Assembly: GCA_045617985.1 (NCBI GenBank)
Contig: JAZLJP010000052.1
Coordinates: forward strand, 10,327-74,326
Origin: Kiritimatiellia bacterium
Lineage (GTDB): Bacteria > Verrucomicrobiota > Kiritimatiellia > RFP12 > UBA1067
DNA length: 64,000 nucleotides
Direction of reading: 5' to 3'
The notes below the pieces were generated by a model. It was given only the letters and a program-made list of their open reading frames with translations, did not search any database and was not told where the DNA came from. Both the position numbers and the translations under genes were made by a program. Positions 1 through 39,234 of the stretch are shown piece by piece (positions within the stretch are counted from its first letter, which is position 1; each line of letters opens with the position of its first letter).

Positions 1-1661
1 TAGCGCGGCGCACTCTCCACGCACCACCAGAGGTTACTGCGCCATTCAATCTGCGCGCCGTTCTTGATTCCCGTGTAGCGCGTGCCAAACGCATCGCCCG
101 CCTGCCAATAGAGGATGTTGTTCTCAACCTTCATCGAAAGGTGCGATTCGACCCTCGTCACCGCCACCTGGCACTGCCGCGAGAAGCCGAAGATGTTGTT
201 CCGAACGACATTGGCGCGGCCGTAGTGTTGATGCAAAGAAGCGTCCATCGTATCATACACGAGATTGTTCTCAACGGTCAATCCCTCGCTTCCTTCGTCG
301 GGATAGATGCCCCAACCGCCGTAGGAGTAGGAATCGATATCGGAAATCACGTTGTTGAAGAGCCGCGTGCCGAAACTCGTACCAAGCGTATAGATCCCCC
401 CCATATCGGAGAGAGCGCGCTGGCCGATTTTGCGAATGCGGTTGAAGCCGATCTGGTTGCGCTGCGCAACCGACCCCGCATACCCCCACACCCAACCGAC
501 GGAAATGCCGGTGTAGTAAAAATCCTCGATCGTGTTCTTCACCACGGTGTTGTCCGACGCATGCGCGATGATCACGCCCACGCCCGATTCCGTGTGGCGT
601 CCCCCGCACCGGAAGACGCAGTTTGTCACGAGGTTGAACGATGTCGCAGCCGGCGGTTGCACCACCGCGCCCGACGCGCCCGGGTTCGTAAAGGGGCCGA
701 TTTTCATGCCCCCCGCGCCGAGATCGTCGAACAGGCAGCTCTCCACACGGTTGCTCGCGCAATCCGCTTCGAGATGCATCCCGTAGGCACCGATGTGGCG
801 AAAGGCACAATTACGGAAGACGATTCGCCGCGCATGGTTCACCTTCACCGCTGCCGGCGTCGTCACCGCCGCCTGATAGGCGTCATACGAAGACGGCCCC
901 ATTTGCTCGGAAGGCGTTGAGTGGGCAAAGGTCACGTTCTCGAACGTCACGTCCTCTGCGCCGTCGATTACGACAAGTGTTTCAAAACCCTGCCGCGGCG
1001 CAATCGCCTCAAGCCAGTCGAGGCGTTCACCGGGTAACGGGCGGTACAGCACCTCGCCCGCCACGCCGTCGTAAAACCATTCGCCCGGCGCATCGAAAGC
1101 GCTACGCAGATTTTCGAAATAGAATTGTTCCTGCGCGTCGAGCTTGCCGGCGGCTACGCCGGCAATGCTCACACGACTCGACGACGCTTTGAATGCCGTG
1201 AGCGGGCGCCGATACAGATCCCATTTCACATGCGCGACGAGATGGACGAACGGGAGGTCCGCCTCCGGCACCTGTGCGAGAAGCGCCGCCTCAGCCGGCA
1301 ACACCCCCACGCCACAGGAGCCATTCTCCTCGCTTGCGATGTCACGCGCCTGGAAGAACCCCGCGTTCGGCGCGCGCGCACGCACGGCACGACGTCCGTT
1401 CACGAACAACGCCTCGAAATAGAACGGCGCGCGTGCCACCCACACGCCGTCCTCGCGCGCAGTCCATCCCGTGATCGGCACGCCCCCCGAAAGAACGGTT
1501 GTACCATCTGCCGCGCCGACGAACCGCGTGCCCGAATCGGCAGCCGTGAGTGTCAGCGCAAGCGGAAGACTCGTCATCCCCGGCGCCAATTCCACCGTTC
1601 GCGCAAGGGCGCCCGCAACCGTCACGCTCCCCGCAAAAAGAACTGCCAACATCCGGCCCAT
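1..1661 (-). CDS. Secreted right-handed parallel beta-helix protein (putative glycan-active enzyme); 3' end runs off the window
   Basis: Manual translation from ATG at 1661: MGRMLAVLFAGSVTVAGALA...FYFEALFVNGRRAVRARAPN...ENLRSAFDAPGEWFYD...HQHYGRANVVRNNIFG. Same motifs as 33156-35273. Missing from the ORF track because no stop lies inside the window. Confidence 0.85.
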   Translation of the reverse strand, partial: MGRMLAVLFAGSVTVAGALARTVELAPGMTSLPLALTLTAADSGTRFVGAADGTTVLSGGVPITGWTAREDGVWVARAPFYFEALFVNGRRAVRARAPNAGFFQARDIASEENGSCGVGVLPAEAALLAQVPEADLPFVHLVAHVKWDLYRRPLTAFKASSSRVSIAGVAAGKLDAQEQFYFENLRSAFDAPGEWFYDGVAGEVLYRPLPGERLDWLEAIAPRQGFETLVVIDGAEDVTFENVTFAHSTPSEQMGPSSYDAYQAAVTTPAAVKVNHARRIVFRNCAFRHIGAYGMHLEADCASNRVESCLFDDLGAGGMKIGPFTNPGASGAVVQPPAATSFNLVTNCVFRCGGRHTESGVGVIIAHASDNTVVKNTIEDFYYTGISVGWVWGYAGSVAQRNQIGFNRIRKIGQRALSDMGGIYTLGTSFGTRLFNNVISDIDSYSYGGWGIYPDEGSEGLTVENNLVYDTMDASLHQHYGRANVVRNNIFGFSRQCQVAVTRVESHLSMKVENNILYWQAGDAFGTRYTGIKNGAQIEWRSNLWWCVESAPR

Positions 1662-1664
1662 GGC

Positions 1665-4600
1665 TTAACGAATCAGAATCAGCACGCCCCCACGCAGATA
1701 GAGTCCCGTTCCCTCGACAAAGAGGGATTTCGGGGTGGCCGTCAACGGCGTGAACTTCAGCTGAGTGAGGTTCGCGGGCGGCGTTGCGGCATCCCAAGCA
1801 ACCACACAAGTGCCGGATTTCGGCTCGGGATCATGGGGAAGTTCAACGTTGTATACCGAGCCGGCCACCGTTCCAAGCGGCAGCCAGGTCCACGGCAGCT
1901 CGCTCACCGCGCTGAGATTGAGCGTTGCGCCATTCACAAGCGTGAGATTGTGCACGTAGGCCGAAGCCGGCGTGTAGCGCCCGGAAATGAAGAGCTGATG
2001 CGTTCCGGCCTTGCTGGATCCGGCGACAAGGTTCGCGCTGACGGCGAAATCGCGCACCGTGATATCGCCATCGAGATACAGGCAGGCGCCGCAGATGATA
2101 TCCGCCTCCTTCCACACCATCGCCTGCCCCGAAGGACGGAACCAGCCGCCCGTGACGATGTTGATCGTGCCGTTGGTGAAGGCGTAGTCCTTGCAGGCGA
2201 AGTAGTTGCCGCTTCCACTTCCAAGATCGACAGTCAGCGTATGCCCACCGAGATTGCCGTAATACGGCGGCTTGTTGAAGAGTAGATGATTGCCGCTGCC
2301 GGGTACGACGATCTTCGAATCGGCCGTCAACGTCACCGCGCCGATGGCACCGTTGTTGTAAGAACTCATGCCGGCACCCTTGTTGACGAGCGACGAAGTA
2401 AGCGTGCCGCCATTGAGAATCACATGGTGCTGCGCGACTTCGTAAACGCTCCGCACGTCGAAGGTGCCATTGGAATTGACGGTCATGGTCGTTCCTCCTG
2501 CGCCGAAATCATGATAGTAGCACAGGGCATAATTCGTCGCGGTTGTATCGTTATAGGCCTGAAGCGTGCCACCATTGATCACCGTGCCACCCGTATAGGT
2601 GTTTTTGCCGAGCACCGTGAACGTTCCCTCGCCGTCCTTCACCAACTTGAGCGAACCCGTGAGCACGAAGTAGTTGCCGTAGTTGCGATCGGTGCTCATG
2701 CTCTTGCCTGCGGGCAGGAAAACGTGCAACTCTCCGCCCGCCCCCGTGGGGAGCGTATCGGTGATCGACACCCCGGAACCGAAATAAGTGTAGATTTTGG
2801 GATAGATCGTAAGGTTGTGGCCACGAAGGTCGATGCACTGCGCCGAAACGAATTCCGGCAGTCCCGCCCAGTCGCAGTCGTTCGTCAGCGCCACGCTGCC
2901 GATGGTCAGAGAGGCGCAGCTGAAGAGCGTCCCCGTGGGGGCGTTGAAGGCGATGTCGCCGTCGAGCGTGACGGCCGTCGCCGTACCCGGGCGGCCATTG
3001 GGAATCACGTTCCCGTTCGCGTCGCGGCACTCCCAGTTCGCCCGGTTCATCACATCGCCGTCGTTTGCCGCACCCGTCCACACGGCCGTCTTGGCGACCT
3101 TTTCAAGGTAGACGCCGTCTTCGCGCCGATCCAGCATGTAGGTCGCCGCCGCCTCTCCGGCGAGTACGAACTGCGAACTCTCCGACACAGGCGCGGAGAA
3201 ATCGACCACCTTCAAGCCAAGGGACAGATCCTCGCGTCCATCCAAGAGCACATTGATGCGCGCATTCGCGGCGAAAGCAACGGTGTTGGCCCCCGTTGTA
3301 AAGGCGCCGTGCGTAGACCAGGTACCGATGCGCGTACTCAAATCGAGCGTGGCACCGTTCTGCAGGGTGCAGCCGTAGTAGTAGTCGGTCTTCGGCGTGA
3401 AGCGCCCGAATACGTTCAACGCGGCGGTGCCGTTGTTCTGGTCGCGGTCACAATTCGCGTAATAGTCCATCACATCCGTTGCGGCCGCCACCTTCAGCGC
3501 GCTTGAAAGACGCAAGTTCGCCGCCCGCAAATTGTTCCCCGTCTCGAGAGCGAGCCAGTTGCCCTGCCCCTCAACGGCCAACGTGCCGTTGGTCACCGCC
3601 GTCTTCTGCAATTGGAACGACTTCCCCGTCACGCCTTCACCGAAGGCGATCGTGAGTGCATGGTTGTTCAGCTGGATGTTGCCCACCGTATCGGCGCCGC
3701 CGAAATAAATCGTTGCCAAAAGATCGATGCGGGCGTCACCAGTCAGCGCAAGCGTTCCCCACCCGCCATAGGTGTTGATCTTGTTCATGTCGTTGACGGA
3801 CGACTTGAACGAGGCGCCTTCCTCCAACCCCAGCCGATAGGTGGCCATCGACACATTGCCGTTCGTTTCGAAGACGGCATTCGTGCCCACGAGAATCTGC
3901 GTTCCCGCAGGTGTCGTGCCAAATGTCTTCATCGCCCACGGCGAGTACTGCGTCGCATTCGAGCTGGGGCTGGGCGGGATGGACACCAGGCCTGCGGCAA
4001 TGTAGGTGCCGCCCCGATAGGCCTGTGCACGAGATGAACAGTAGTGCCCCGCGCCCTCCTTCACGAACTTGAGCTTGCCGGCGAGGGCCACCGTCGTATT
4101 GGTCAGGACCACACCCTCGGCAAGATCGAGATGGAATTCGCCGCCGCCGATGGTGTCGGTAATTGTCGAAGTCGTCGTACCCTTGAGATCGGCCATGTAG
4201 AAACGATGTCCGGCAACTTCGATCGTCACGTCGGCGGGAATCGCCACCGAGCCGAGAGCGCGCCAATCGCAATCGGCATCAAGCGAAATGGTGCCCACGA
4301 GCGAGAGCGCCTTATGCACAAGCGTCTGCCCAGGTGGACAGGTGAAGGTCGTGGTGCCGGAAATGACCACCGTATGTTCTGCCGTCGGCGCGATGCCGGG
4401 CAGGTCATCGCCGTTTGCGTCCGTACAGGACCAGTTCGCAGGATCGTTCACGTTCGTATGGTCGCCGTCTCCCGTCCACACCGCCGTCAAAGGTTGCGCC
4501 GCACGGAACAACCCTTCTTCGACCGTCACGCCGGGTACGTTCGGCTGTTCGCAGGTGAAGACGAGCCGTCCCTTGCCCGTCTTAATGATGTTGCTCGCTG

Positions 4601-6233
4601 CGGACAGCGGAGCCGAAATTTTCACCGTCTCACCTTCGGCAACGAAGATCGTCGGCTCCGAAAGCGTCAATGTCGCCGTACCCGAGATAGCAACCGACTT
4701 GGTGAAGAAGAGGCGTCCGACCGTCGTCGCCGCATCGACGGACACCTCGCCGACCATGGAAAACGCCGCCGGGTTGCCGTCAGCCCACGCCGCCTCGGCA
4801 TCCTGATCCAGCGTCCACGCGCCCGCCTGGTTCCACGCGCCGCTTGCCGCCGTGCGCCGATAGACGAAATCGCTCTCGTCGATCCACGCCTTCCCGTTCG
4901 TCCACTTCGCCTGCAGATAATCCTGCACGACCGACCGCGAAAAACTTTCGATCGCCGACGTGCAGACGATGATTTCCGACAGGGCTCGGCCGCCGCTCCG
5001 CGCCGTGAGCGTGCGGTCGGTCGTCAGGCGGTTCGCCCGCGCATTGGCGCGCAGCGACATCGTATACTGGTGAAGGCCGAGCGGCCATTCGTCGCTGTAC
5101 GACACCGGCTCGCTATCGGTGTAGATCTTCGTCTCCCCGTTGATGAGGCCATAGGACGCCGTGCCGTAAACGCCCGACAGGCAGTGGAAATCATAGATCT
5201 CGCCTCCCACATAGCCGAGCCAGAACAAGACGTCTGGCTTAATGTCCATGGCCCAGAAGACCGTGCGGATCGTAGTGATGGCCGGGAAGGCAAGGTCGAT
5301 CTTCGACCCGGCGGCTCCCATCTGAAGAACGGGCACATCGTTCTGCCAGCCGAACGTGCCCTTATTGCTCCCCGCCGGCACCGTGCCGTCGTACGTTACG
5401 CCGCCGCTGCCGAGGTTCTTCCAGCCCGTCACGGCGTTGCCGGCATCGAAGGTGAAATAATCCCGGCGCGACGCATCGTAGCGCAGCACCGCGTTCGTGA
5501 GCACCGTTTCAAGGGCGATCTTGCGCCACTTGGCAATCAGATGGTTCGTCACGAGCTCGCGCTCGGCATCCCCGAGCTCCGAAGGAAAGAGGATCACTTC
5601 CGAGAGCTGCCGGCCCGACACCCGCTCGCCGCCAGCCGCGCTCTTGTTGCGATCGCGCGAAAGCGAATCGGAACAGCACCCCTGCGTTGTCGTGAAACAG
5701 ATGATCTGGAAACCGTCGGCCGGGATCGCTTCTGTACTGAAATCGACCACCTGCCGCAAACCGTTCCACACCTTCCTGATCTTGGCGTAGGCCGTTGCGA
5801 AATAGGCCGCCCCGCCACGGTGGAAGTTGTACGCACCCTTTCCGGCATTCGCGTCGCCCAACAGGAACGCACCGCCATTCGCCTCGATCTTGATGACCTC
5901 GAAGACCGTGCGGATGTTGGTGAAACGCGTGTAGGTCATGTCCTTGCCATTGCCATACGCGCCGAAGTCCACGGTGGGCATTCCCCAAGACGAAGGCGCA
6001 TACACGGGCTTGAGCGTCGCACTCACCGCATTCGCCGTCCGCCCGTCCCCGGCCTTCGACTTCCACGAAGCGAGATTGCCGTTCTCGTCCTTGGACATCG
6101 TCGTTTCATCGGCGGCATCCAACCAGAACATGGCATTCTGCGAGATGTAATTCACCGCGTCGTCTTCTGCGCGCACCGAGGCGGCAGAAACCAGCGCAAT
6201 CAAAGCGAAACAAACGAACCGAATCATTTTCAT
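1665..6233 (-). CDS. Large (~1520 aa) secreted surface protein: 2 LamG-like jelly-roll domains, 3 autotransporter-associated beta-strand repeats, 2 tandem ~470-aa modules, C-terminus GGVLILIR
   Basis: ORF 1665-6281; start moved to 6233 (MKMIRFVCFALIALVSAASVRA signal peptide, AAGGA RBS at 6241-6245). Repeats such as LKLVKDGEGTFTVLGKNTYTGGTVINGGTL. Duplicated FWLDA/LRYDA...IRTVF...LSEVI...AKW domains. Confidence 0.85.
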   Translation of the reverse strand: MKMIRFVCFALIALVSAASVRAEDDAVNYISQNAMFWLDAADETTMSKDENGNLASWKSKAGDGRTANAVSATLKPVYAPSSWGMPTVDFGAYGNGKDMTYTRFTNIRTVFEVIKIEANGGAFLLGDANAGKGAYNFHRGGAAYFATAYAKIRKVWNGLRQVVDFSTEAIPADGFQIICFTTTQGCCSDSLSRDRNKSAAGGERVSGRQLSEVILFPSELGDAERELVTNHLIAKWRKIALETVLTNAVLRYDASRRDYFTFDAGNAVTGWKNLGSGGVTYDGTVPAGSNKGTFGWQNDVPVLQMGAAGSKIDLAFPAITTIRTVFWAMDIKPDVLFWLGYVGGEIYDFHCLSGVYGTASYGLINGETKIYTDSEPVSYSDEWPLGLHQYTMSLRANARANRLTTDRTLTARSGGRALSEIIVCTSAIESFSRSVVQDYLQAKWTNGKAWIDESDFVYRRTAASGAWNQAGAWTLDQDAEAAWADGNPAAFSMVGEVSVDAATTVGRLFFTKSVAISGTATLTLSEPTIFVAEGETVKISAPLSAASNIIKTGKGRLVFTCEQPNVPGVTVEEGLFRAAQPLTAVWTGDGDHTNVNDPANWSCTDANGDDLPGIAPTAEHTVVISGTTTFTCPPGQTLVHKALSLVGTISLDADCDWRALGSVAIPADVTIEVAGHRFYMADLKGTTTSTITDTIGGGEFHLDLAEGVVLTNTTVALAGKLKFVKEGAGHYCSSRAQAYRGGTYIAAGLVSIPPSPSSNATQYSPWAMKTFGTTPAGTQILVGTNAVFETNGNVSMATYRLGLEEGASFKSSVNDMNKINTYGGWGTLALTGDARIDLLATIYFGGADTVGNIQLNNHALTIAFGEGVTGKSFQLQKTAVTNGTLAVEGQGNWLALETGNNLRAANLRLSSALKVAAATDVMDYYANCDRDQNNGTAALNVFGRFTPKTDYYYGCTLQNGATLDLSTRIGTWSTHGAFTTGANTVAFAANARINVLLDGREDLSLGLKVVDFSAPVSESSQFVLAGEAAATYMLDRREDGVYLEKVAKTAVWTGAANDGDVMNRANWECRDANGNVIPNGRPGTATAVTLDGDIAFNAPTGTLFSCASLTIGSVALTNDCDWAGLPEFVSAQCIDLRGHNLTIYPKIYTYFGSGVSITDTLPTGAGGELHVFLPAGKSMSTDRNYGNYFVLTGSLKLVKDGEGTFTVLGKNTYTGGTVINGGTLQAYNDTTATNYALCYYHDFGAGGTTMTVNSNGTFDVRSVYEVAQHHVILNGGTLTSSLVNKGAGMSSYNNGAIGAVTLTADSKIVVPGSGNHLLFNKPPYYGNLGGHTLTVDLGSGSGNYFACKDYAFTNGTINIVTGGWFRPSGQAMVWKEADIICGACLYLDGDITVRDFAVSANLVAGSSKAGTHQLFISGRYTPASAYVHNLTLVNGATLNLSAVSELPWTWLPLGTVAGSVYNVELPHDPEPKSGTCVVAWDAATPPANLTQLKFTPLTATPKSLFVEGTGLYLRGGVLILIR

Positions 6234-6296
6234 TTTGATTTCCTTGATAAAAAGTTCCACCAACGCCCTGTCGTTCATCACAAACAGGCGGAGTTA

Positions 6297-6325
6297 ATTA
6301 TAGCAAACACCCCAAAGGCACACAA
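6297..6325 (-). promoter_or_regulatory. Putative sigma70-type promoter for the large surface protein
   Basis: Minus strand reads TTGTGT-17 bp-TATAAT with extended -10 TG. Confidence 0.6.
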
Positions 6326-6334
6326 GGCAGAATT

Positions 6335-6392
6335 TGCCTGGAGTTTGCCCATTTTTCAGCCTCCTGCGCGCCGAGCGCCCCCGCGCCGTGCG
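6335..6392 (-). repeat. Copy A of a conserved ~58-bp intergenic element (candidate structured RNA or operator)
   Basis: 48/59 identical to 23491-23549 by manual alignment; all 10 substitutions are transitions. Confidence 0.75.
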
Positions 6393-6437
6393 TGCGGAGG
6401 CTCGCGCGGCTTCGGGGCCAACCGTACGCCGCACCAG

Positions 6438-7241
6438 CTAGCCTTTCTTCTCTCTTGCTCCGAGGCCTAGGGCGTTTTGCAGGCGCACGATGAGCGTATT
6501 GGGAACGAGGGCGAAAACGAGGGCTTTGAGCGTTTCTTTGAGGCGTGTTCGGAAAGGCGGAAGACCGCGCTTTTCAAAGTCGATTTCAAGATTGTTCGCG
6601 CGGCAGACGGCAACGCCGAAGCGCTCCCAGCAGCCCTTGTGAACCGCATCGACGAACGGGAATTCGCGTTGCGCGGTCGCGAGGATCGGGCGCGCCTCGT
6701 CGCCGACGGCAAAGGACCCGTACCGCTCGAACTCCCAGATGCTCGAAACGGGTCTCGCAAGACACCGCAGGAACCCACGCTCCCAAAATCCCGCGAGCGT
6801 GGAAATGCAATAGGCCGTGTTCTTCGGATATTCCATGAGTCCGTTCGCACGCGCAAGACCATGCTTGGGATTGGGAATCAACCGCAAATTGACGGCATTC
6901 GCGGCCTTCATCTCCGCAAGCCGTGCAAGAAGGTGCGCGGTCTCGACAGGGGCTTCGAGAAAATAGTCGTCGCACAACATGAAGACGTAGGGCGTTTTGA
7001 TCTCATCAAGCGCCTTCACGAGGCGCGAGGCCCAGTTCATCCCGGCGCCGCAGGCGATCACGCGATCGAACGCGGGGCGTTCCGCCTCCGCCTCGCCGGC
7101 GATTTCGGGCACGTGTTCCGTCACGAGCACCGTTTCAAACGGACAATCCGGCCAGAACTTCCGCTTGAGCGCGGCAAACGGCGCAAGCAGATCCCGATAC
7201 GCATCGCAAGACGCCACAAGGACCGTACAGTCGCCGTTCAT
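6438..7241 (-). CDS. Putative GT-A-fold glycosyltransferase-like protein
   Basis: VLVASCDAY...WASRL...YVFMLCDDYFL (DxD-like) motifs typical of GT2-like hypothetical proteins. Confidence 0.6.
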   Translation of the reverse strand: MNGDCTVLVASCDAYRDLLAPFAALKRKFWPDCPFETVLVTEHVPEIAGEAEAERPAFDRVIACGAGMNWASRLVKALDEIKTPYVFMLCDDYFLEAPVETAHLLARLAEMKAANAVNLRLIPNPKHGLARANGLMEYPKNTAYCISTLAGFWERGFLRCLARPVSSIWEFERYGSFAVGDEARPILATAQREFPFVDAVHKGCWERFGVAVCRANNLEIDFEKRGLPPFRTRLKETLKALVFALVPNTLIVRLQNALGLGAREKKG

Positions 7242-7253
7242 CGCCTTTCCCCC

Positions 7254-8333
7254 TTACACACCGATGATGTAGCACACAACGGCGATCAATCCGTCGAAGA
7301 CGGCAATCGCGATGATTCCGCCCACCACGGCATTCGTAGCCGCCACGCCCACGCCGTCCGCCGTGTTGCGCGTACGCATGCCGCAGGAACAGCCGATAAG
7401 CCCCACGAGGAAACCGAAGAGCACCGACTTCGAAAGGCCGAGCACGATGATGAACACGGTCGAGACCTTCGCCACATGGCTCCAGTAGACGACGGTTGGC
7501 ACATTCATGAGCTGCAGAACGATGGCGCCGCCGATCAACCCGGCGAACTCGGAGAAGATGGTCAGGACCGGCATCGCAAGCGCCACCGCCACCACGCGCG
7601 GCAGCACGAGGAACCGAACCGGCGGAAGCCCGAACGTGGTGAGCGCATCAAGCTCTTCATCCACTTTCATCGTGCCGATTTCAGCGGCGAAGGCGCTTCC
7701 CGAACGGCCCGCGAGAATGATCGCCGTCACCAAGGGGCCGAGTTCGCGGAAGAGGCCGATGGCAATCAGATCGGCCACATACACTTCCACGCCGAACGTG
7801 CGGAGCGAAGCCGCCGATTCAAAGGCGAGAATGAGGCCGAGAAGGAACCCGATCAACACCGTAATCGGCACGCCGTCGAAACCGGCCCGCTCAAACGCGA
7901 GCGCAAAATCCTTGAACCGGAACCGCCGCGGATGAAACAGCATCCCGCAGGCATCGACAACGGTCTCGCCGAGGAACGCGCAATTCGAATGGAAATCGGA
8001 AAAAAACGTACACGCCGCCCGCCCAACCGTTTCAAAGAGGCCCGCCCGTACCCGGCGCGGCCCCGATGTCACATCGTAGCTCGCAAAATCATAGCGCGCG
8101 CGAATGGGTTCGATCAAGCCATGCGGATCAACGGCTTTCAGCGAGAGGCCACTCGCCACGGCCTGACGGTCAAGTTGCAAGAGCAACGCTTCGAAGGCCG
8201 CTGAGGACGTCGTGAGTTCCGAAATGTCAAGGACAACCGTATCGCCTTTCTTCAGGCGCCGGACCTTGCGGACCTCTCGCCAGGCAAGGGCGATTTCATC
8301 CGCACTGCCCCCTTTCAGCACAATCGGCTTCAT
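7254..8333 (-). CDS. mlaE: MlaE-family ABC permease with N-terminal STAS-like domain
   Basis: RELGPLVTAIILAGRSGSAFAAEIGTMKVDEELDAL signature; N-terminal VVLDISELT..SSAA STAS-like segment. Confidence 0.9.
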   Translation of the reverse strand: MKPIVLKGGSADEIALAWREVRKVRRLKKGDTVVLDISELTTSSAAFEALLLQLDRQAVASGLSLKAVDPHGLIEPIRARYDFASYDVTSGPRRVRAGLFETVGRAACTFFSDFHSNCAFLGETVVDACGMLFHPRRFRFKDFALAFERAGFDGVPITVLIGFLLGLILAFESAASLRTFGVEVYVADLIAIGLFRELGPLVTAIILAGRSGSAFAAEIGTMKVDEELDALTTFGLPPVRFLVLPRVVAVALAMPVLTIFSEFAGLIGGAIVLQLMNVPTVVYWSHVAKVSTVFIIVLGLSKSVLFGFLVGLIGCSCGMRTRNTADGVGVAATNAVVGGIIAIAVFDGLIAVVCYIIGV

Positions 8334-11300
8334 CAGGCCTTCGGTTCAGCCGGCTTTTTTTCAACCGGCTTCGCCTCTACAGGTTTCGCAGGGGCCGCCG
8401 GCTTCGCCTCGGCGGGCTTCGCAGGAGCGGTCTCGCCAAGTTGCCGTAGAGACGGCGCTACAGGAGCGGCCGATGCTGGTGCGGGCTTTGCCGGTGCGGC
8501 AGCGGGCTTCGGCGTTGCCGGAACGGCCGGAGCAGGCGCCGCAGGGGCCGCCGGAACAGCAGGAGAAGGCGCGGGCTCGCTTCCGGGCTCCGGTGCCGGC
8601 TTCGTTTCAACCGGCGCGTTCTTCTCGCGGATCTTATCGATGATTTCGCGCAAGTCGGCCTGTTCGTCCTTGAAGCGCTTCTGTTCTTCGAGAATTTCCT
8701 TCTGGTGCTTCTGCGCCCATTCCTGACGATCCTTGTCATCCATCTTCGCGAGCTTCTTCGCGCGTTCGGCCTTGGCCTCTTCGATGGCCTTCGCCGTCTT
8801 GCGCTCGGCATCCTGGATTTCCCACTCTTCGCTCAAGCGGCGCAGCTGTTCACGCTTGGAGACGGGATCGGCCACGGGGCTCAGCGACCAGCCGTTCGAA
8901 TCGAACGGACGCGGATCGCTGAGCGACTTCTTGCGGCGGATGGCTTCCGCCTGCGCGGCGTCGGCATCGTCCAAGACATACGGCGTCATGAAGACGAGGA
9001 GTTCCGAACGGGCGTCCTTCTGCGAGACGCTGCCGAAGAGCCACTTGCCGATCCACGGGATGTCCTTCAAAATCGGAATACCCGATTCGCTATTCACTTC
9101 GGTCTTCTTCGTGAGGCCGCCCATCACCACCGTCATGCGGTTTTCCACCGAAACGTCGCTCGAGATCTTACGCGTCGTAACCGTGGCGTAGGGGTCCGTA
9201 CCGCCGGATTCGTTCGGCACGTTCTGGTCGGCACCCTGCGTTTCGAAGGTCTGTTCCACCGTGAGTACCACCGTGCCGTTCGGGTTGATACGCGGCGTCA
9301 CCTTCACCGTAAGGCCGATATCGCGCTTTTCATAGTTACGCACCTGGCCGCCCGTATAGGCCGAGCCGGAGTACTGGTAGCCGCTGAAGAGGTAGATCAT
9401 ATCGGTCGCCTCGATCGTGGCTTCCTTGTTGTCCACCGTCATCAGAATCGGCGAGGCAAGCACCTTCGTGCGGCTATCGCTCTTCGCGGCATTCAAGACG
9501 GCGGAGATGTTGAGCTTGTCGCTCTTGAGGAGGTAGTTGATACCGCCGCCGATGGGCGTAGCGCCGGCAAAGTAGCCGCTCGCCCCCTCAACGGCATTCG
9601 TGCCGAGCGACATCATCGACTGCAGAATCGCCGACGAGGATCCACCGCCGCCGCCAAGACCATAATGGCCATGGTTGACGAACCCGTCGCGGAGAAGCGT
9701 CTTCATCGACTCGTACACAGGGAAGCCCGTATCCGTCGTAGTGGTCTTCATGACCTTATTGCCCGTATCTTCATCCGTCGTTTCTTCCCAGAACAGGTCA
9801 CGCCCGTAGGCATCCTTCGCCTGCACCTTCTCGGTCACATGCTGGCGGCCGCGCTGCACCCAGTCGATGCCCGTTTGGAGGTCGTCGCCAAGTTCCACCT
9901 GCACGATCACCGTTTCGATGAGCACCTGCGAGAGCTTCACGTCCATGTCTTCGATGACTTCCTTCACGGCCTTCATATCGGCCTTGCGGGCCATCATCAC
10001 GATGCCGTTGATGCGCTTGTCGGCAAGGATCTTGATGTTGTCCTTGTTGAGTTCGCCCAAGCTCGAGGAAGCCGGCGTCGAGAACGTGGGGTTCGCCGTC
10101 TGCGGACGCGGCGCAGGCGCGGGCGTACGGGCCGTCAGGTTGCGGTTCGCGGCAGCCCCGCCGCGCGCGGCGGCGGCGTTGGGGTTGTTCTTCGAGGAGG
10201 ACGAGGACCCGTTGTTGCCGATGAGGTCGTTGAGCATCGAGGCCACTTCTTCGGCATCGGCATATTTCAAGCGCACCACTTCCACGCTCACCTCGGGCGT
10301 CGTTTCCACATCGAGCGTTTCGATCACCTTGTCGAAGAAGTCCATGTTCGTCTTCGCCGTGATGATGATGAGCTTGTTGGAGCGTTCGTCGGCGAGGATG
10401 AGCACCTTGCCGCGGATCATGCCGCGATCGGCGTCGGAAACCTGGGCGAGCATCGTCGCGTTCGGCGTGGTGACCTGCGGCTGCGGCTGGCCAGGACGGC
10501 CCGGGAGATTCAAAAGACGCGTCGGCTGCGGCGCCGGCGCACGCGCGCCGAAGCCGGGGGCGCCGCTCGTTTTCGGCCCGGAAGACGCCTGCTGCGCATC
10601 CTTCTGGCTTTCCGTCACGATCGTTTCAAGCGCCGTCTTGATATCCGTTGCCACGGCGAATTTGACCTGGCGCACGAAGACGTCTTCAAGAACGGGGTTG
10701 GCCACGTCGAGTTCCTTGATCACCTCGAGCATGCGGTTCACGTTCTCCTGCGTATCGGTAACGAGAATCGAGTTGTTGCGCTCGAACACCTGGAAGAGAC
10801 CCGTGGGATCCTTGAAGCCCTCGATCGCCTTCTGCGCTTCCTCCGCCGTAATGTGGGTGAGGCGGATGAGCTGGCTGATCACCTTGCCCTTTTCGGGAAT
10901 CGAATTCGTGGGAATCTCCATCGACGTGCGAATGCCTTGCGTACGCACGGTCTTGCGGTCGAAGGCGTAGAGGAAGATGTCGTCCACTTCCTCGAGCACC
11001 ACGCCGTTCATCGTGAGCACGCGCTCGATCGCGTTCAGATACTGTTCCTTCGTGAGGTCGCGGTCTTCAAACGTCTTGAGCGTCACCTGCGTCTTCGGCA
11101 GATTCGGCGCCGGGAGGAGAATCTTGTCGGCCACGTCCGCATACGCGAAAAGGAGAAGGTCTAGCGGCGCCTGGTCGAACGCAAGGCGCGTGGGAACGCC
11201 ATTCGTCCCTTTCGGAATTTCGGCGAGCATCTCCTCAGGCGTCTTCTGCTCTTCGCCGCCCGCCGCCGCACCGTTCATGCCGCCGTTCATGCCGCCGGCC

Positions 11301-11491
11301 ATGCCGCCGGCCATCGCACCGCCGCGCATGCCGCCGAATCCGCCGGCACGCCCTGCGCCGCCCAGCAGATTGCGCCGGCCGCCGAACCCGCCCATACCGC
11401 CGCCCATCGGGCGCGTCAGCTGCGCATCGGCCGTCGCCGCCACAAGGGCCGCGAACAGGAAAAGCGCGAGCGTATAGATTGTCTTTCTCAT
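8333..11491 (-). CDS. gspD: Type II secretion secretin GspD with long low-complexity extensions
   Basis: Signal peptide; N0 plus three Secretin_N repeats (IRLTHITAEE, ADERSNKLII, LKYADAEEVA); QVLIETVIVQV; KVLASP.LMTVDNKEATI; SGIPILKDIPWIGKWLF...RSELLVFMTPYV. Confidence 0.92.
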   Translation of the reverse strand: MRKTIYTLALFLFAALVAATADAQLTRPMGGGMGGFGGRRNLLGGAGRAGGFGGMRGGAMAGGMAGGMNGGMNGAAAGGEEQKTPEEMLAEIPKGTNGVPTRLAFDQAPLDLLLFAYADVADKILLPAPNLPKTQVTLKTFEDRDLTKEQYLNAIERVLTMNGVVLEEVDDIFLYAFDRKTVRTQGIRTSMEIPTNSIPEKGKVISQLIRLTHITAEEAQKAIEGFKDPTGLFQVFERNNSILVTDTQENVNRMLEVIKELDVANPVLEDVFVRQVKFAVATDIKTALETIVTESQKDAQQASSGPKTSGAPGFGARAPAPQPTRLLNLPGRPGQPQPQVTTPNATMLAQVSDADRGMIRGKVLILADERSNKLIIITAKTNMDFFDKVIETLDVETTPEVSVEVVRLKYADAEEVASMLNDLIGNNGSSSSSKNNPNAAAARGGAAANRNLTARTPAPAPRPQTANPTFSTPASSSLGELNKDNIKILADKRINGIVMMARKADMKAVKEVIEDMDVKLSQVLIETVIVQVELGDDLQTGIDWVQRGRQHVTEKVQAKDAYGRDLFWEETTDEDTGNKVMKTTTTDTGFPVYESMKTLLRDGFVNHGHYGLGGGGGSSSAILQSMMSLGTNAVEGASGYFAGATPIGGGINYLLKSDKLNISAVLNAAKSDSRTKVLASPILMTVDNKEATIEATDMIYLFSGYQYSGSAYTGGQVRNYEKRDIGLTVKVTPRINPNGTVVLTVEQTFETQGADQNVPNESGGTDPYATVTTRKISSDVSVENRMTVVMGGLTKKTEVNSESGIPILKDIPWIGKWLFGSVSQKDARSELLVFMTPYVLDDADAAQAEAIRRKKSLSDPRPFDSNGWSLSPVADPVSKREQLRRLSEEWEIQDAERKTAKAIEEAKAERAKKLAKMDDKDRQEWAQKHQKEILEEQKRFKDEQADLREIIDKIREKNAPVETKPAPEPGSEPAPSPAVPAAPAAPAPAVPATPKPAAAPAKPAPASAAPVAPSLRQLGETAPAKPAEAKPAAPAKPVEAKPVEKKPAEPKA

Positions 11492-12030
11492 TTAGCAGAT
11501 CCTTTCATGTAGGCACACGTCAACGTGAATTTCACCGAGAGGAAGCCGTTGTTCCGTGAAGAGATGTCCAAATCGCGCACGTCGAACATGCCGCCTTCCG
11601 CATGGTCGAGCGCATAGAAGAACTTCACGACGCGCGCCAGGGACGCTTCGAACTTGACTTCGATCGGCATCTCCCACACGCCGCCATGTTCCTCCTCGGG
11701 CTTCGGCTGTTCACCGAGGATTTCAACACCGTTTTCCTGGGCGATTTTTTCCAAGAGACGCTGCCACCGCGTTTCGGTGGACTCGCCTTCCGCGGCCGTG
11801 GGCATCTTCACGCTCACTTCCTCGGACTTCGCCACCCACTGCCCCTTCTCGGAAATCAGCTTGTTCTCGCGGGCGAGCTGCTTCTTCGCGTTCTCGTAGG
11901 CCTTGCGCGACTTCGCCCACGCCGCCTCGCGGCCGCTGAACCACAGAAGCGCCGCCAAACCGTAAAGCGCGATCACGCCAATGACGGCGAGCACCGTCCG
12001 TTCGCGACGGGACATCCCTGACATGCTCAT
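11488..12030 (-). CDS. GspM/PilO-like inner-membrane assembly protein
   Basis: SRRERTVL + single TM helix + coiled coil + ferredoxin-like tail (MPIEVKFEASL..VVKFFYAL); ATGA overlaps with both neighbours. Confidence 0.8.
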   Translation of the reverse strand: MSMSGMSRRERTVLAVIGVIALYGLAALLWFSGREAAWAKSRKAYENAKKQLARENKLISEKGQWVAKSEEVSVKMPTAAEGESTETRWQRLLEKIAQENGVEILGEQPKPEEEHGGVWEMPIEVKFEASLARVVKFFYALDHAEGGMFDVRDLDISSRNNGFLSVKFTLTCAYMKGSAK

Positions 12031-13505
12031 TTGCCACTCCCCTTCTTCGCGTTCGCGGCCTCTTCCTCCGTATGGAAGAACCCTTCCATCGTGAAGCGGA
12101 TGATGCCCTTCTTCGAAATGTTCTCGCCGCCGGACTGCTGCACCTTCGCGAAGAGGCGCTCATCTTCGGCGGCATCCTCGAACGAGGCGTCGTTGAGCGC
12201 GTCCATGAACGAACGCAAGTCCTCACGCGCCGTCGACGTGCCCGTCACGCGCACGCTTTCATCGCGATGGTAGCGGAAGTTGCTGAGGAACATATCCGGG
12301 GAATTCGGCAGACAGTCGGAAATCGTCTTGAACACTTCGAGCGCCCCATGCGCATGGTCGGCATAGCGCTGGATGAGCTCCACCCGGCTCTTGAGCGCGG
12401 AAACCTCCTTGAAGGCAACCGCGTGCCGATGGTCCTTCTGCAACTTCTTCTGACGGCCCGTCATGAAATCGTACGTCATGTCAACGCCGAAAAGAACGCC
12501 CATCACAAGGAGCCACAGCCCACCCGCAATCGAGAGCCAGAGAATGAGCTTTTTCCGAAAACGGTTCTCAATGAGCGCCTCGCGCCACGCCTCGGGCGTT
12601 ACATCGAGGGCCGCGTTTTCAACCGTGCGCCGCGCCGCGCCTTCCGTGCCGGCAAACGCATCTTCCGCGAGCACCTGCCGCACCGGGCCGAAAAACGCGA
12701 GCCGATCAAGGAACGCCGGATCGACAGGCGCACGCGAACAGACGACCACTTCATCGGCCGCCTCGGCGCCCCCCATCTGCTGGAGCAGGCTGAGCATGAC
12801 TTCACGATGAAGCTCCGCCGGCGAAGAGACGTTCCCAAGCCCGCGGAGGAACGTGGGCGCATCCCGGTCGATGAAAACGAGGTCCCATCCGTCGTCCAAA
12901 TTGAGGAGCACGAGCCGCCGCTTCGCATCGGCCTTCTCGCAGAGGCGCGGCCACAGGGAGCGCAACCATCCGAACGCCGTCGTATCGGTACGCATCACAT
13001 GCACCTTCGCGGCCGCAAGCGCTTCGCTGATCTCCATCGACGCCGCATCGGGAAGCGCCGCCACCACGGCGACGATCTCCTTATCCGTCTCGTCCACGAT
13101 CTCGGCGCCCGGCACGAGCACTTCATCCGGGAACGGCGAAATGCCGTCGAGCTCGAGCTGCGCCGCGCCAAGCAGATCGTCACGCGCCTCGGCGGGGAGG
13201 CGCACCGTCTTCACGAGAAATTTCGAAAGCGGCAGCGACAGCGCAAATTCGTGCGTACCGAACTTCTGCGCCGCCGCACGAAACGCGCGGGCGAGGGGCT
13301 TATCCTCCTCGGCCACCTCTTCGGTCGCCACCGGATCTCCCTCGGCGGCGGCGTCTTCCGGCTTCTCCGCACCCGGCAGATCCGCCGCCGCAATCAGCGG
13401 CCACGAGTCGCACGCGCCGCGCGAAACGCGCTCGCCATCAACCTCCAATTGGACACCGCGAAGCGCGGTGCCCTCGAGGCCCAGAACTGTCACTAATTTT
13501 GCCAT
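12027..13505 (-). CDS. GspL-like / PilM-PilN fusion assembly protein
   Basis: Actin-like N-terminus (VLGLEGTALRGVQL; LSLPLSKFLVKTVRLP..AQLELDGISPF), central TM helix, PilN-like periplasmic domain; start placed at MAKLVTV. Confidence 0.8.
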   Translation of the reverse strand: MAKLVTVLGLEGTALRGVQLEVDGERVSRGACDSWPLIAAADLPGAEKPEDAAAEGDPVATEEVAEEDKPLARAFRAAAQKFGTHEFALSLPLSKFLVKTVRLPAEARDDLLGAAQLELDGISPFPDEVLVPGAEIVDETDKEIVAVVAALPDAASMEISEALAAAKVHVMRTDTTAFGWLRSLWPRLCEKADAKRRLVLLNLDDGWDLVFIDRDAPTFLRGLGNVSSPAELHREVMLSLLQQMGGAEAADEVVVCSRAPVDPAFLDRLAFFGPVRQVLAEDAFAGTEGAARRTVENAALDVTPEAWREALIENRFRKKLILWLSIAGGLWLLVMGVLFGVDMTYDFMTGRQKKLQKDHRHAVAFKEVSALKSRVELIQRYADHAHGALEVFKTISDCLPNSPDMFLSNFRYHRDESVRVTGTSTAREDLRSFMDALNDASFEDAAEDERLFAKVQQSGGENISKKGIIRFTMEGFFHTEEEAANAKKGSGK

Positions 13506-13512
13506 TCGACAT

Positions 13513-13541
13513 ATTATCTCATTTCTAGGGACGGCGCGCAA
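13513..13541 (-). promoter_or_regulatory. Putative sigma70-type promoter of the T2SS operon, likely leaderless
   Basis: TTGCGC-17 bp-GATAAT (TG-extended), followed by 7 nt and then ATG; no RBS in between. Confidence 0.5.
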
Positions 13542-38135: not shown

Positions 38136-38166
38136 ATGCGAAAACAGGTCAGACCTGTTTTCGCAT
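38136..38166. repeat. REP palindrome copy 1 (overlaps the RAYT stop codon)
   Basis: atgcgaaaacaggtc-a-gacctgttttcgcat, perfect 15-bp arms; central base is opposite to copies 2-4. Confidence 0.9.
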
Positions 38167-39234
38167 GCCGACGATCCACGGACCATCCGTATTGAGCTTC
38201 ACCAGTACACCATTCCTCTTCATTTTCTCAATCGCACGGTACACGGTTGACGGAAACACCTCCAAACGTTTCGCCACTTCGTCCGTTCCCAACGCCGGAT
38301 CGAGGAACAACACCGCCCACACCTTCGATTCGACATCAGGGAAACGATCAGTCCCGTATTCCCCGCCGTTCTTAAACGAAACATACGCACTTCTGACCTC
38401 TTCGAGATGCGCCGCCGCCTGCATCACCAGAACCTCGTTCGTCAACGGATCGCAAGGCGCATCACAACCGGCCGCCCGGAGACGCGCGATTCCCTCAGCC
38501 CGGCTACGTTTGATATCGGAAAGCAGATCGTCAAGCAACGCGATATGGCACGCCTCCATTTGCGAAAACAGGTCTGACCTGTTTTCGCACACTTCGCCAT
38601 AGATGAATTTCATTCCTGCGATGGCCGTTTGATCGCCACGCCGGAACGCGGCGAAACTACTCCATGCGTATCCGTCGTAGCGATCAGTCATTGCGGCACA
38701 GATGGGATTGAGGTTGATGTAACCGAGGCGTTGAGCCATCTCCTTGAACACCATCTCAACCTTCCTGTCGATGTAGACGCCCTCCCACAACGTTCCGGTA
38801 TGTTTGTGACGTTGGTTGTATTCCTCGGTAAACCACTGCTTGGCTATCTTCATGAAGTTGCCAACGTCGTACATACGCCGACGCTGCCGACGCAACCAAA
38901 CGTCAACCTCCGACTCAAGGCCATCTTTCCTTAGCCGATTGAGTTGCACGGCCATGGACGCCGCCGCCGCCGAACCTTTGAGCACACCATATCTACGCAA
39001 CACCTCCGCCTCATCCAACGCCTCCGGCTCTGGCAAATATACCAGCAAGTGGAAATGGTTGGTCATCAGGCACCATCCCAGTAATTGTATCCCCGTAAAA
39101 TCCGCCGTCCGGCGAATGATCTCGAGGAATTCGTTACGATCTTCATCGTCAAGGATGAAAACCTTGTGCGCGATTCGGCTCATCAGATGGTGAACCGTAT
39201 CGTAAGATTTGACTCGATTGTTTGATGCAGACAT
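38149..39234 (-). mobile_element. REP-associated tyrosine transposase (RAYT, Y1/HUH) with C-terminal winged HTH
   Basis: VHHLMSRI; CLMTNHFHLLV (HUH); FMKIAKQWFTEEYN...GTLWEG; GYINLNP (catalytic Tyr); YAWSSF; C-terminal DEVAKRLEVFPSTVYRAIEKMKRNG. Confidence 0.88.
38561..38589. repeat. REP palindrome copy 2, inside the RAYT ORF
   Basis: tgcgaaaacaggtc-t-gacctgttttcgca; encodes CENRSDLFSQ in frame. Confidence 0.9.

Follow-up and report, generated by a model that had tools for sequence, protein, structure and literature searches.

A 1,522-amino-acid exported protein of a Kiritimatiellia bacterium ends in the residues GVLILIR: a glycine, five hydrophobic residues and a basic residue at the free C-terminus. 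Sequence comparison indicates that this ending is one instance of a strictly terminal, Kiritimatiellia-wide C-terminal motif that was previously undescribed. The protein is encoded in a 64,000-nucleotide stretch of DNA (assembly GCA_045617985.1, contig JAZLJP010000052.1, positions 10,327-74,326), which we call the window; coordinates below are positions in it, and all features of the large gene and of the secretion-type operon next to it lie on the minus strand. The original prediction for this DNA saw the tail as a sorting or secretion signal, possibly handled by the products of the adjacent genes: a type II secretion system (T2SS) operon, mlaE and a glycosyltransferase (GT)-like gene.

What might such a tail do? 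The reading that we prefer, to which we give a little under an even chance, is that the tail is a recognition element for sorting or anchoring and that the adjacent genes would not be a machine dedicated to it. The two halves of the original prediction fare differently here. A sorting or secretion signal is credible; its handling by the adjacent T2SS, by MlaE or by the GT product is unsupported, since none of 62 related loci shows the link. Below we set out where the tail occurs, how strictly it is confined to the end of the protein and what surrounds its genes, and we weigh four alternative explanations against this evidence.

Results

A motif fixed at the C-terminus

The large gene occupies 1665..6233. 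Its translation bears out the predicted ending GGVLILIR: the protein closes with LYLRGGVLILIR, or, taken further back, with the longer stretch EGTGLYLRGGVLILIR, and the stop codon TAA follows at 1665-1667. The terminal tail GVLILIR itself (1668..1688) completes a 54-residue C-terminal domain (aa 1469-1522; 1668..1829) with the pattern W..P..F.L..(G)Y.L..dGL.L..G-hydrophobic5-[RK] in our alignment A2.

Searching with the full-length protein gave 72 homologues, of which 69 have tails that read hydrophobic-x-hydrophobic-[RK]. For many of the 72, similarity to the query is confined to the N-terminal module A, yet they share the tail. Among 65 non-redundant tails, glycine stands at position -7 in 60; it is followed by F/T/L/M at -6, I/L at -4, F/L/I/Y at -3, V/L/F/I at -2 and R/K at -1. 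A profile made from the last 54-55 residues of alignment A2 was then run against 1.84 billion representative proteins, clustered at 50% identity. It matched 407 clusters at E<=1e-3, and in nearly all of the matches listed the alignment reaches the last residue. The tail is therefore not unique to the large protein. A strict regular expression, G[FTLMVIA]x[ILMV]x[VLFIM][RK]$, fits 111 of the 143 profile-matched proteins that were retrieved. In about 1 Mb of related DNA it picks out 5 of 3,956 open reading frames (ORFs) of at least 100 aa, where the estimated chance rate is about 3e-4 per ORF. By a crude test, the N-terminus is hydrophobic in 102 of 112 full-length tail proteins.

How closely is the motif tied to the end of the chain? 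The body of the C-terminal domain is found a second time, at the end of the internal module C, and terminal and internal copies can be compared directly. A local hmmsearch of all fetched proteins found 205 terminal copies, ending at profile positions 49-54 (189 of them at 54). Among the 53 internal copies the match breaks off at positions 41-47, right behind the dGLYL strand, in 40 and extends to 54 in a single one; the internal copies run on into the next module (...A.WTGA.GDGD). The large protein has such an internal copy of the domain body (aa about 1009-1044; 3102..3209), which reads ...YMLDRREDGVYLE and then KVAKTAVWTG, without the G-hydrophobic5-R strand. The junction is DRREDGVYLE followed by KVAKTAVWTG, and in P0001, the 90% orthologue of the large protein, the profile match at this place stops at position 45 of 54.

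The terminal copies have a fixed end. Zero residues follow position 54 in 196 of 199 non-redundant terminal copies, and the last residue of these 196 is R in 132, K in 54 and another residue in 10. Because the internal copies lack the tail strand and 196 of 199 terminal copies end on it, the tail behaves, as far as these alignments tell, as a discrete terminal element. In 17 divergent proteins the core-family profile aligns the last 10-25 residues only, covering the strand, the turn and G-hydrophobic5-[RK].

The same comparison bears on the main rival explanation, which we consider possible, if doubtful: the tail may be a structural cap with no part in sorting. Its strand would round off the small beta-sheet at the end of the last beta-helix module; internally that position would be covered by the strand with which the following module begins, and the basic end would act as an aggregation gatekeeper. 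The domain body recurs inside proteins as a module cap; 5-10 residues past the internal hairpin comes a conserved, strand-like ..A.WTG segment; and most carriers share module C. Yet the lack of any raggedness in 196 of 199 copies, with 95% of them basic-ended, is unusual for a mere structural last strand. Five hydrophobic positions in a row imply burial on both faces, whereas the monomer AlphaFold2 model leaves the tail unpaired. The tail is also kept where the domain body is unrecognisable or apparently replaced by a LamG domain.

Carriers of the tail

Families were assigned by Pfam and NCBIfam profile scans against curated cut-offs, and the tails were scanned at E<=10. At that level neither the last 61 nor the last 114 residues of the large protein gave a Pfam or NCBIfam match. 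Five other tail proteins had no NCBIfam match, and the tail profile matched no PDB sequence. A word-indexed protein search with the 55-residue profile returned one irrelevant match only, and no description of the tail was found in the full texts searched. In both the profile scans and these texts, then, the tail matches no described sorting family, in keeping with the original prediction.

Does the tail occur on unrelated proteins? A metagenome collection was searched for DNA encoding GFMI.VR followed by a stop. Most of the 64 matches are chance ones in short, out-of-frame ORFs, and three have profile support. The search also brought up four more long ORFs of secreted type. At L095 the tail follows a Laminin_G_3 domain that stops about 12 residues before the C-terminus. 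L114 is a PKD and beta-helix protein ending DIGCYETATSGFMIFVR. L085 is a fragment resembling the autotransporter-associated beta-strand repeat (PATR), which carries the tail and is unrelated by BLAST, and L094 is a relative of P0026. These four ORFs are suggestive, and only suggestive, of a tail that is portable between proteins. Pfam scans of 14 further tail proteins found little beyond Laminin_G_3, F5/8 type C and PATR.

Two further endings were seen in these contexts. At L092 (2019-2270), an 84-aa ORF after a formylglycine-generating-enzyme-like gene ends FPDGFMILVR; it is either a very small tail protein or a chance match. At L065 (14083-16569), a Peptidase_C10 protein encoded beside a tail protein ends NGVYISVK.

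Architecture and predicted fold of the large protein

Alignment of the 72 homologues to the query divides the large protein into three kinds of module: A (aa 30-236 and 240-444), B (about aa 580-690 and 1049-1143) and the beta-helix module C (aa 698-1045 and 1165-1522); besides the beta-helix ones, the protein has modules that are probably lectin-like. The chain begins with a Sec-type signal peptide, MKMIRFVCFALIALVSAASVRA (aa 1-22; 6168..6233), and the mature protein would start EDD. The original prediction had recognised the Sec signal and the lack of a barrel; it gave the length as 1520 rather than 1,522 aa. It had also counted three PATR-type repeats. A single one, at aa 1197-1225 (2559..2645), scores above the thresholds (PF12951 35.4 bits, TIGR02601 36.4 bits), and the other two are degenerate look-alikes. 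Nor do such repeats strictly need a type V barrel or a sorting tail, as had been argued: that is a generalisation, not a rule. The only PDB sequence match of the large protein lies in its PATR region, to fusolisin at E=7e-4.

Module A (about 205 aa; 5526-6146 and 4902-5516 in the window) occurs in 1-5 copies in many Kiritimatiellia proteins and has no Pfam match in the window protein. In precomputed Pfam listings, relatives carry Laminin_G_3 matches somewhere in the protein.

The last 365 residues were modelled with AlphaFold2 from a 28-sequence alignment, and the model was compared with the PDB by Foldseek. It contains short strands throughout (predicted local distance difference test score, pLDDT, 82; predicted template modelling score, pTM, 0.86). 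The best Foldseek matches, all weak, are the passengers Hap, IcsA, Ag43, pertactin and UpaB together with phage tailspikes. The model thus predicts a right-handed beta-helix for the C-terminal region, not a barrel. As the original prediction had it, no barrel is present in the model of the last 365 residues, and no Autotransporter barrel (PF03797 or TIGR01414) was detected at E<=10 in the whole protein or in its last 114 aa. No strand is assigned to the last eight residues, and the mean pLDDT of the last five is about 70, versus 82-87 just before.

Two alternatives concern this terminal strand. As an assembly element, the tail would drive oligomerisation: the protein would form trimers, as tailspikes do, or fibres through head-to-tail strand exchange. 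Beta-helices of tailspike and adhesin type are the nearest folds, the all-hydrophobic strand is unpaired in the monomer model, and tail genes sometimes adjoin one another (at L001, L070 and L065). No data point specifically to polymerisation, however, and no acceptor groove was identified, and we regard assembly as an unlikely function. The second alternative, which we hold to be quite improbable, is that the tail mimics the beta-signal read by the beta-barrel assembly machinery (BAM). The terminal strand would dock on BamA or TamA and provide PATR passengers with a route or an anchor that needs no barrel. The passenger is autotransporter-like and has no barrel, and the spacing of glycine and hydrophobic residues in the tail resembles the beta-signal of outer-membrane proteins (OMPs). 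But the last residue is basic rather than aromatic, and the large protein lacks the barrel itself.

No linkage to secretion genes

If the adjacent genes handled the tail, the two should be found together elsewhere. The secretin was searched in species-representative genomes, and the 10-kb neighbourhoods of 62 related loci were surveyed. Nearly all of these loci are labelled Kiritimatiellia, or else unclassified, Verrucomicrobia, Lentisphaerae or mis-binned gut metagenome-assembled genomes; the source names of the homologues and related loci assign the window to gut or rumen Kiritimatiellia. A homologue of the large protein lies within 10 kb of the secretin at none of the 62 loci. ORFs with the tail at the level of the regular expression occur at only two, neither with profile support. 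The reverse survey gave the same answer: ten tail-gene loci (204 kb, within 10 kb of tail genes) contain no homologue of gspL, gspM, gspD, mlaE or the GT gene. The proposed co-occurrence of the tail with a gspLMD-mlaE cluster is thus absent from both sets of loci.

The orthologues of the large protein tell of other surroundings. Four of them, at least 90% identical and from other assemblies, lie elsewhere, share the NosD-like gene downstream and have no secretion gene near any of them. Another tail protein, 1,257 aa long and with GTTIFIR as its end, is encoded upstream of the orthologue in L070-L072 and in L001, together with a 167-aa gene; L070-L072, but not L001, have in addition a 1,022-aa SLH/fn3/CBM-like gene there. 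In GCA_045641465.1, the closest assembly to the window that was seen, the orthologue and the secretin are on separate contigs. Nor does any neighbour of tail genes recur in the contexts examined, where we saw housekeeping genes, glycoside hydrolases, TatA/TatC once and other tail proteins.

In the window itself a gap of 204 bp sets the large gene apart from the GT gene and so from the operon. Within this gap we read from the sequence a putative extended -10-like element, TGcTATAAT (6297..6305); a consensus scan of 6150-6500 detected neither a complete promoter nor a terminator. The ATG of the large gene at 6233 is preceded, at a distance of 7 nt, by an AAGGAA ribosome-binding site.

These results bear most directly on the idea of a dedicated system, in which the adjacent gspL-gspM-gspD, MlaE and/or GT product would export or sort the tail proteins. 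The genes are adjacent and on the same strand in the window, and T2SS is the only outer-membrane protein exporter reported for Kiritimatiella glycovorans. Set against this are the 62 secretin loci and ten tail-gene loci without the partner, the displacement of the orthologues in four assemblies, the separate contigs in GCA_045641465.1, and the gap with its own -10-like element. In addition, mlaE pairs with mlaF and mlaD in relatives, and the GT product has no signal peptide. We judge a dedicated system to be very improbable. Adjacency to a secretin operon in one genome is no evidence of a functional link; to judge from the loci compared, gspL-gspM-gspD, mlaE and the GT gene are ordinary housekeeping modules that stand beside the large gene by local rearrangement.

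The secretion-type operon

The original prediction described gspL/pilMN, gspM, gspD and mlaE as joined by stop/start overlaps and followed by a GT-like gene, and both points hold. The overlaps, read from the sequence, are 4, 4 and 1 bp (ATGA at gspL/gspM, ATGA at gspM/gspD and TGATG at gspD/mlaE), and a 12-nt spacer leads to the GT gene.

The first gene (12027..13502, with an ORF that extends to 13562) encodes a GspL or fused PilM-PilN-like inner-membrane assembly protein of 491 aa from its ATG, or up to 511. Its sole family match is a weak one to PilN (17.6 bits, below cut-off), and it has no PDB sequence match. The GspM/PilO-like protein that follows (180 aa; 11488..12030; 4-bp ATGA overlap at both ends) matches T2SSM (24.9 bits), T2SSM_b (21.6) and NF040576 (39.7), all below cut-off. 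The names gspL and gspM are candidate assignments, drawn from these sub-threshold matches and from synteny: the order gspL-gspM-gspD is kept in about 52 of the 62 related secretin loci.

The third gene (8333..11491) encodes a secretin of 1,052 aa with Secretin (PF00263, 141.5 bits) and Secretin_N domains, the latter in three stretches (PF03958). It scores 336.7 bits against TIGR02517, just below the cut-off of 351.35. Its domains mark it as a GspD-type outer-membrane module of a T2SS or of a type IV pilus-like system. The L-M-D gene order is one that we take to be more like pilMNO(P)Q than gspC-M. No gene for GspE, GspF or a pseudopilin was found in the window or, by eye, among ORFs of at least 150 aa upstream of gspL in seven related loci. 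The secretin also has an unusual Gly/Met-rich stretch in its N-terminal region (about aa 28-80) and a C-terminal extension of about 200 aa that is first Lys/Glu-rich and then Pro/Ala/Lys-rich.

A STAS-MlaE permease of 359 aa (7254..8333) comes next, its gene overlapping the secretin stop by 1 bp. It matches PF02405 (MlaE) at 217.7 bits, STAS_2 at 22.3 bits and TIGR00056 at 206.8 bits (cut-off 212.2). In the surveyed loci mlaE is found within 10 kb downstream of the secretin in 21 of 62, mostly closer relatives, where it is directly 3' of the secretin gene. In the more distant relatives L008, L009, L013 and L018, mlaE is followed by ORFs that, inspected by eye, resemble mlaF and mlaD in their end motifs and a transmembrane start; mlaE is therefore judged by eye to belong to an ordinary Mla set (mlaEFD) in relatives. 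In the window and in the three closest loci, L002-L004, mlaE has no such partner next to it, and the GT gene stands there instead.

The GT gene (6438..7241) encodes a protein of 267 aa with no Pfam, NCBIfam or PDB sequence match. Its AlphaFold2 model (pLDDT 92) gave 126 Foldseek matches in the PDB at E<=1e-3. The top 50 are all glycosyltransferases, mostly known GT-A enzymes, and the Foldseek probability is 1.0 for B4GALNT1, WrtF, TarS, TarP and SpsA. On this model the protein is GT-A-fold and glycosyltransferase-like, and transferase activity is predicted. A CDDY motif (aa 90-93) comes right after strand 85-90; D92 is invariant and D91 nearly so, and by position only the motif is a candidate equivalent of DxD. 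The family has at least 515 homologues, of which the 120 listed are 60-80% identical, and all are without a name from any source. Among the 62 loci the gene follows mlaE only in L002-L004; in L002 an rmlC-like gene, assigned by eye, stands after it. The protein has no signal peptide and for that reason is presumably cytoplasmic, and therefore could not act on an exported C-terminus.

Other genes in the window

On its other side the large gene is followed, 3 nt after its stop, by the start of a NosD-like right-handed beta-helix gene (1..1661, minus strand), which runs off the window and is 95% identical to L001 5788-7440. The two genes are tightly coupled. The orthologue of the NosD-like gene lies at L001 5782-9090; its Beta_helix and NosD matches are weak or faint. 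The orthologous protein ends RFTLDEAG.GKIFVVPNRNGLGGFARVRILEKD, that is, in a body-like motif, a degenerate tail and then three extra residues. A gut RNA library, which may contain DNA, has near-identical contigs over the operon and over the GT and large genes, including the junction of the large and NosD-like genes.

Beyond the operon, on the minus strand from 13603 to 37927, is a run of glycan-degrading and related genes: GH76, a metallophosphoesterase, a GH78-type rhamnosidase recognised by eye, Gfo/Idh/MocA oxidoreductases, a mucinase-like M60 peptidase, and GH39-like, GH141-like and GH20 genes. From 38000 to 64000 the GC content drops from about 0.63 to 0.45-0.53, the GC skew is strongly negative and all genes are on the minus strand. 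These genes make up an O-antigen or capsule-type polysaccharide locus, with a sugar-transfer ATP-grasp protein, a Wzy-like protein, two GT4 enzymes, a pyruvyl transferase, a MatE/Wzx-like flippase and an epimerase/dehydratase. At its border (38149-39234) is an IS200-like Y1 transposase fused to a winged-helix domain.

Discussion

How does the tail compare with known C-terminal signals? It falls outside five classes that it calls to mind, because the defining feature of each is missing from it. Closest in working is the C-terminal domain of the type IX secretion system (T9SS) of Bacteroidota (TIGR04183 / TIGR04131). Like the tail domain, it is small, all-beta and terminal and is carried by large Sec-exported proteins; its substrates are often glycan-active or adhesin-like, their genes are dispersed, and the last strand is the best conserved. 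The domain described here is shorter, about 54 aa versus 70-100, and its hallmark is a glycine, five hydrophobic residues and a terminal R/K. Neither the last 61 nor the last 114 aa match TIGR04183, PF18962 or TIGR04131 at E<=10. To our knowledge, T9SS is not known in this phylum.

Proteins with a GlyGly-CTERM tag leave the cell through T2SS in Vibrio. Like the tail, that tag of the GlyGly-CTERM/rhombosortase system (Haft 2011, PMC3237569) is C-terminal and in a many-to-one relation, and the window tail happens to have GG before its hydrophobic run. But GlyGly-CTERM depends on an entire transmembrane helix together with a basic cluster, whereas the tail has five hydrophobic residues and one basic residue; glycine at -8 is found in only 15 of 65 tails, and there is no NCBIfam match. 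PEP-CTERM, recognised by exosortase, is likewise a C-terminal sorting tag and is common on PATR proteins of other bacteria of the Planctomycetes-Verrucomicrobia-Chlamydiae group. The tail has neither a PEP motif nor a transmembrane helix nor an Arg cluster, and it does not match TIGR02595.

The remaining two classes depend on a barrel. Classical (type Va) autotransporters share with the large protein the Sec signal, the PATR repeat and a beta-helical, passenger-like fold, and the cap body of the tail domain may be analogous to their autochaperone or cap region. Their C-terminal 12-strand barrel is absent from the large protein. The OMP beta-signal recognised by BamA is also an extreme C-terminal strand with glycine and hydrophobic positions at a fixed distance from the free carboxylate. 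It ends in F, W or Y within a barrel, whereas the tail ends in R/K in 186 of 196 copies and has no barrel.

If the tail is a recognition element, the following sequence of events can be imagined. Sec would export the large protein, leaving the terminal hairpin and strand to be recognised. The free C-terminus would be bound by an envelope component, whose hydrophobic groove would probably take up the tail by beta-strand augmentation, the carboxylate and the terminal basic residue marking the register. The bound protein would then either cross the outer membrane or stay attached to the cell surface. By which route might it leave? For Kiritimatiella glycovorans, the type strain of the phylum, only Sec, Tat and a type II system are reported (Spring et al., PMC5148204). 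Because no other outer-membrane protein exporter is reported there, T2SS may be taken as the default export route, by elimination and not by linkage. Tail genes are dispersed without a fixed neighbour, as expected for the substrates of a many-to-one system. A bolder form of the proposal, which we put forward only tentatively, is that an undescribed sorting or secretion pathway of Kiritimatiellia uses Gly-hydrophobic5-[Arg/Lys]-COOH as its address tag, one that can be carried by beta-helix, LamG and other domains alike and is recognised by its free C-terminus.

Several points weigh against a recognition element. The receptor, protease or translocon is so far only hypothetical, and no gene recurs beside the tail genes. 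The sorting role is a prediction from sequence. Most carriers belong to one modular superfamily, built from modules A, B and C, and the argument from diverse passengers is therefore weaker than it is for PEP-CTERM or the T9SS C-terminal domain. In internal copies the strand of the next module (..A.WTG) comes after the same hairpin, a place in which the tail could be its structural replacement. The portable examples could be chance, since by our estimate 2-4 chance matches to GFMI.VR plus stop are expected. Finally, the C10 peptidase at L065 and the ORFs at L024 and L059 fit the regular expression but not the profile; they are treated as possibly chance.

Should the tail prove to be a structural cap and nothing else, it would still supply a domain model that is missing from the databases. 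The motif marks at least 407 clusters of mostly huge, unannotated proteins in an abundant and almost uncultured phylum of the gut and rumen. The LPXTG, PEP-CTERM, GlyGly-CTERM and T9SS C-terminal domain tags each led to the discovery of a sorting machine, and the tail is built differently from all of them: it lacks both a transmembrane helix and a barrel, and its last residue is fixed as a basic one. As a true signal, it would be a simple predictor of the surface and secreted proteome of Kiritimatiellia, its receptor would be findable by phylogenetic profiling, and it would possibly offer a handle on the long-standing question of how type II systems choose their substrates. Were it to serve as an address tag, it could represent a linear signal, the first of its kind, for type II-dependent export or for retention at the surface, or else the mark of a route without a barrel for autotransporter-like passengers.

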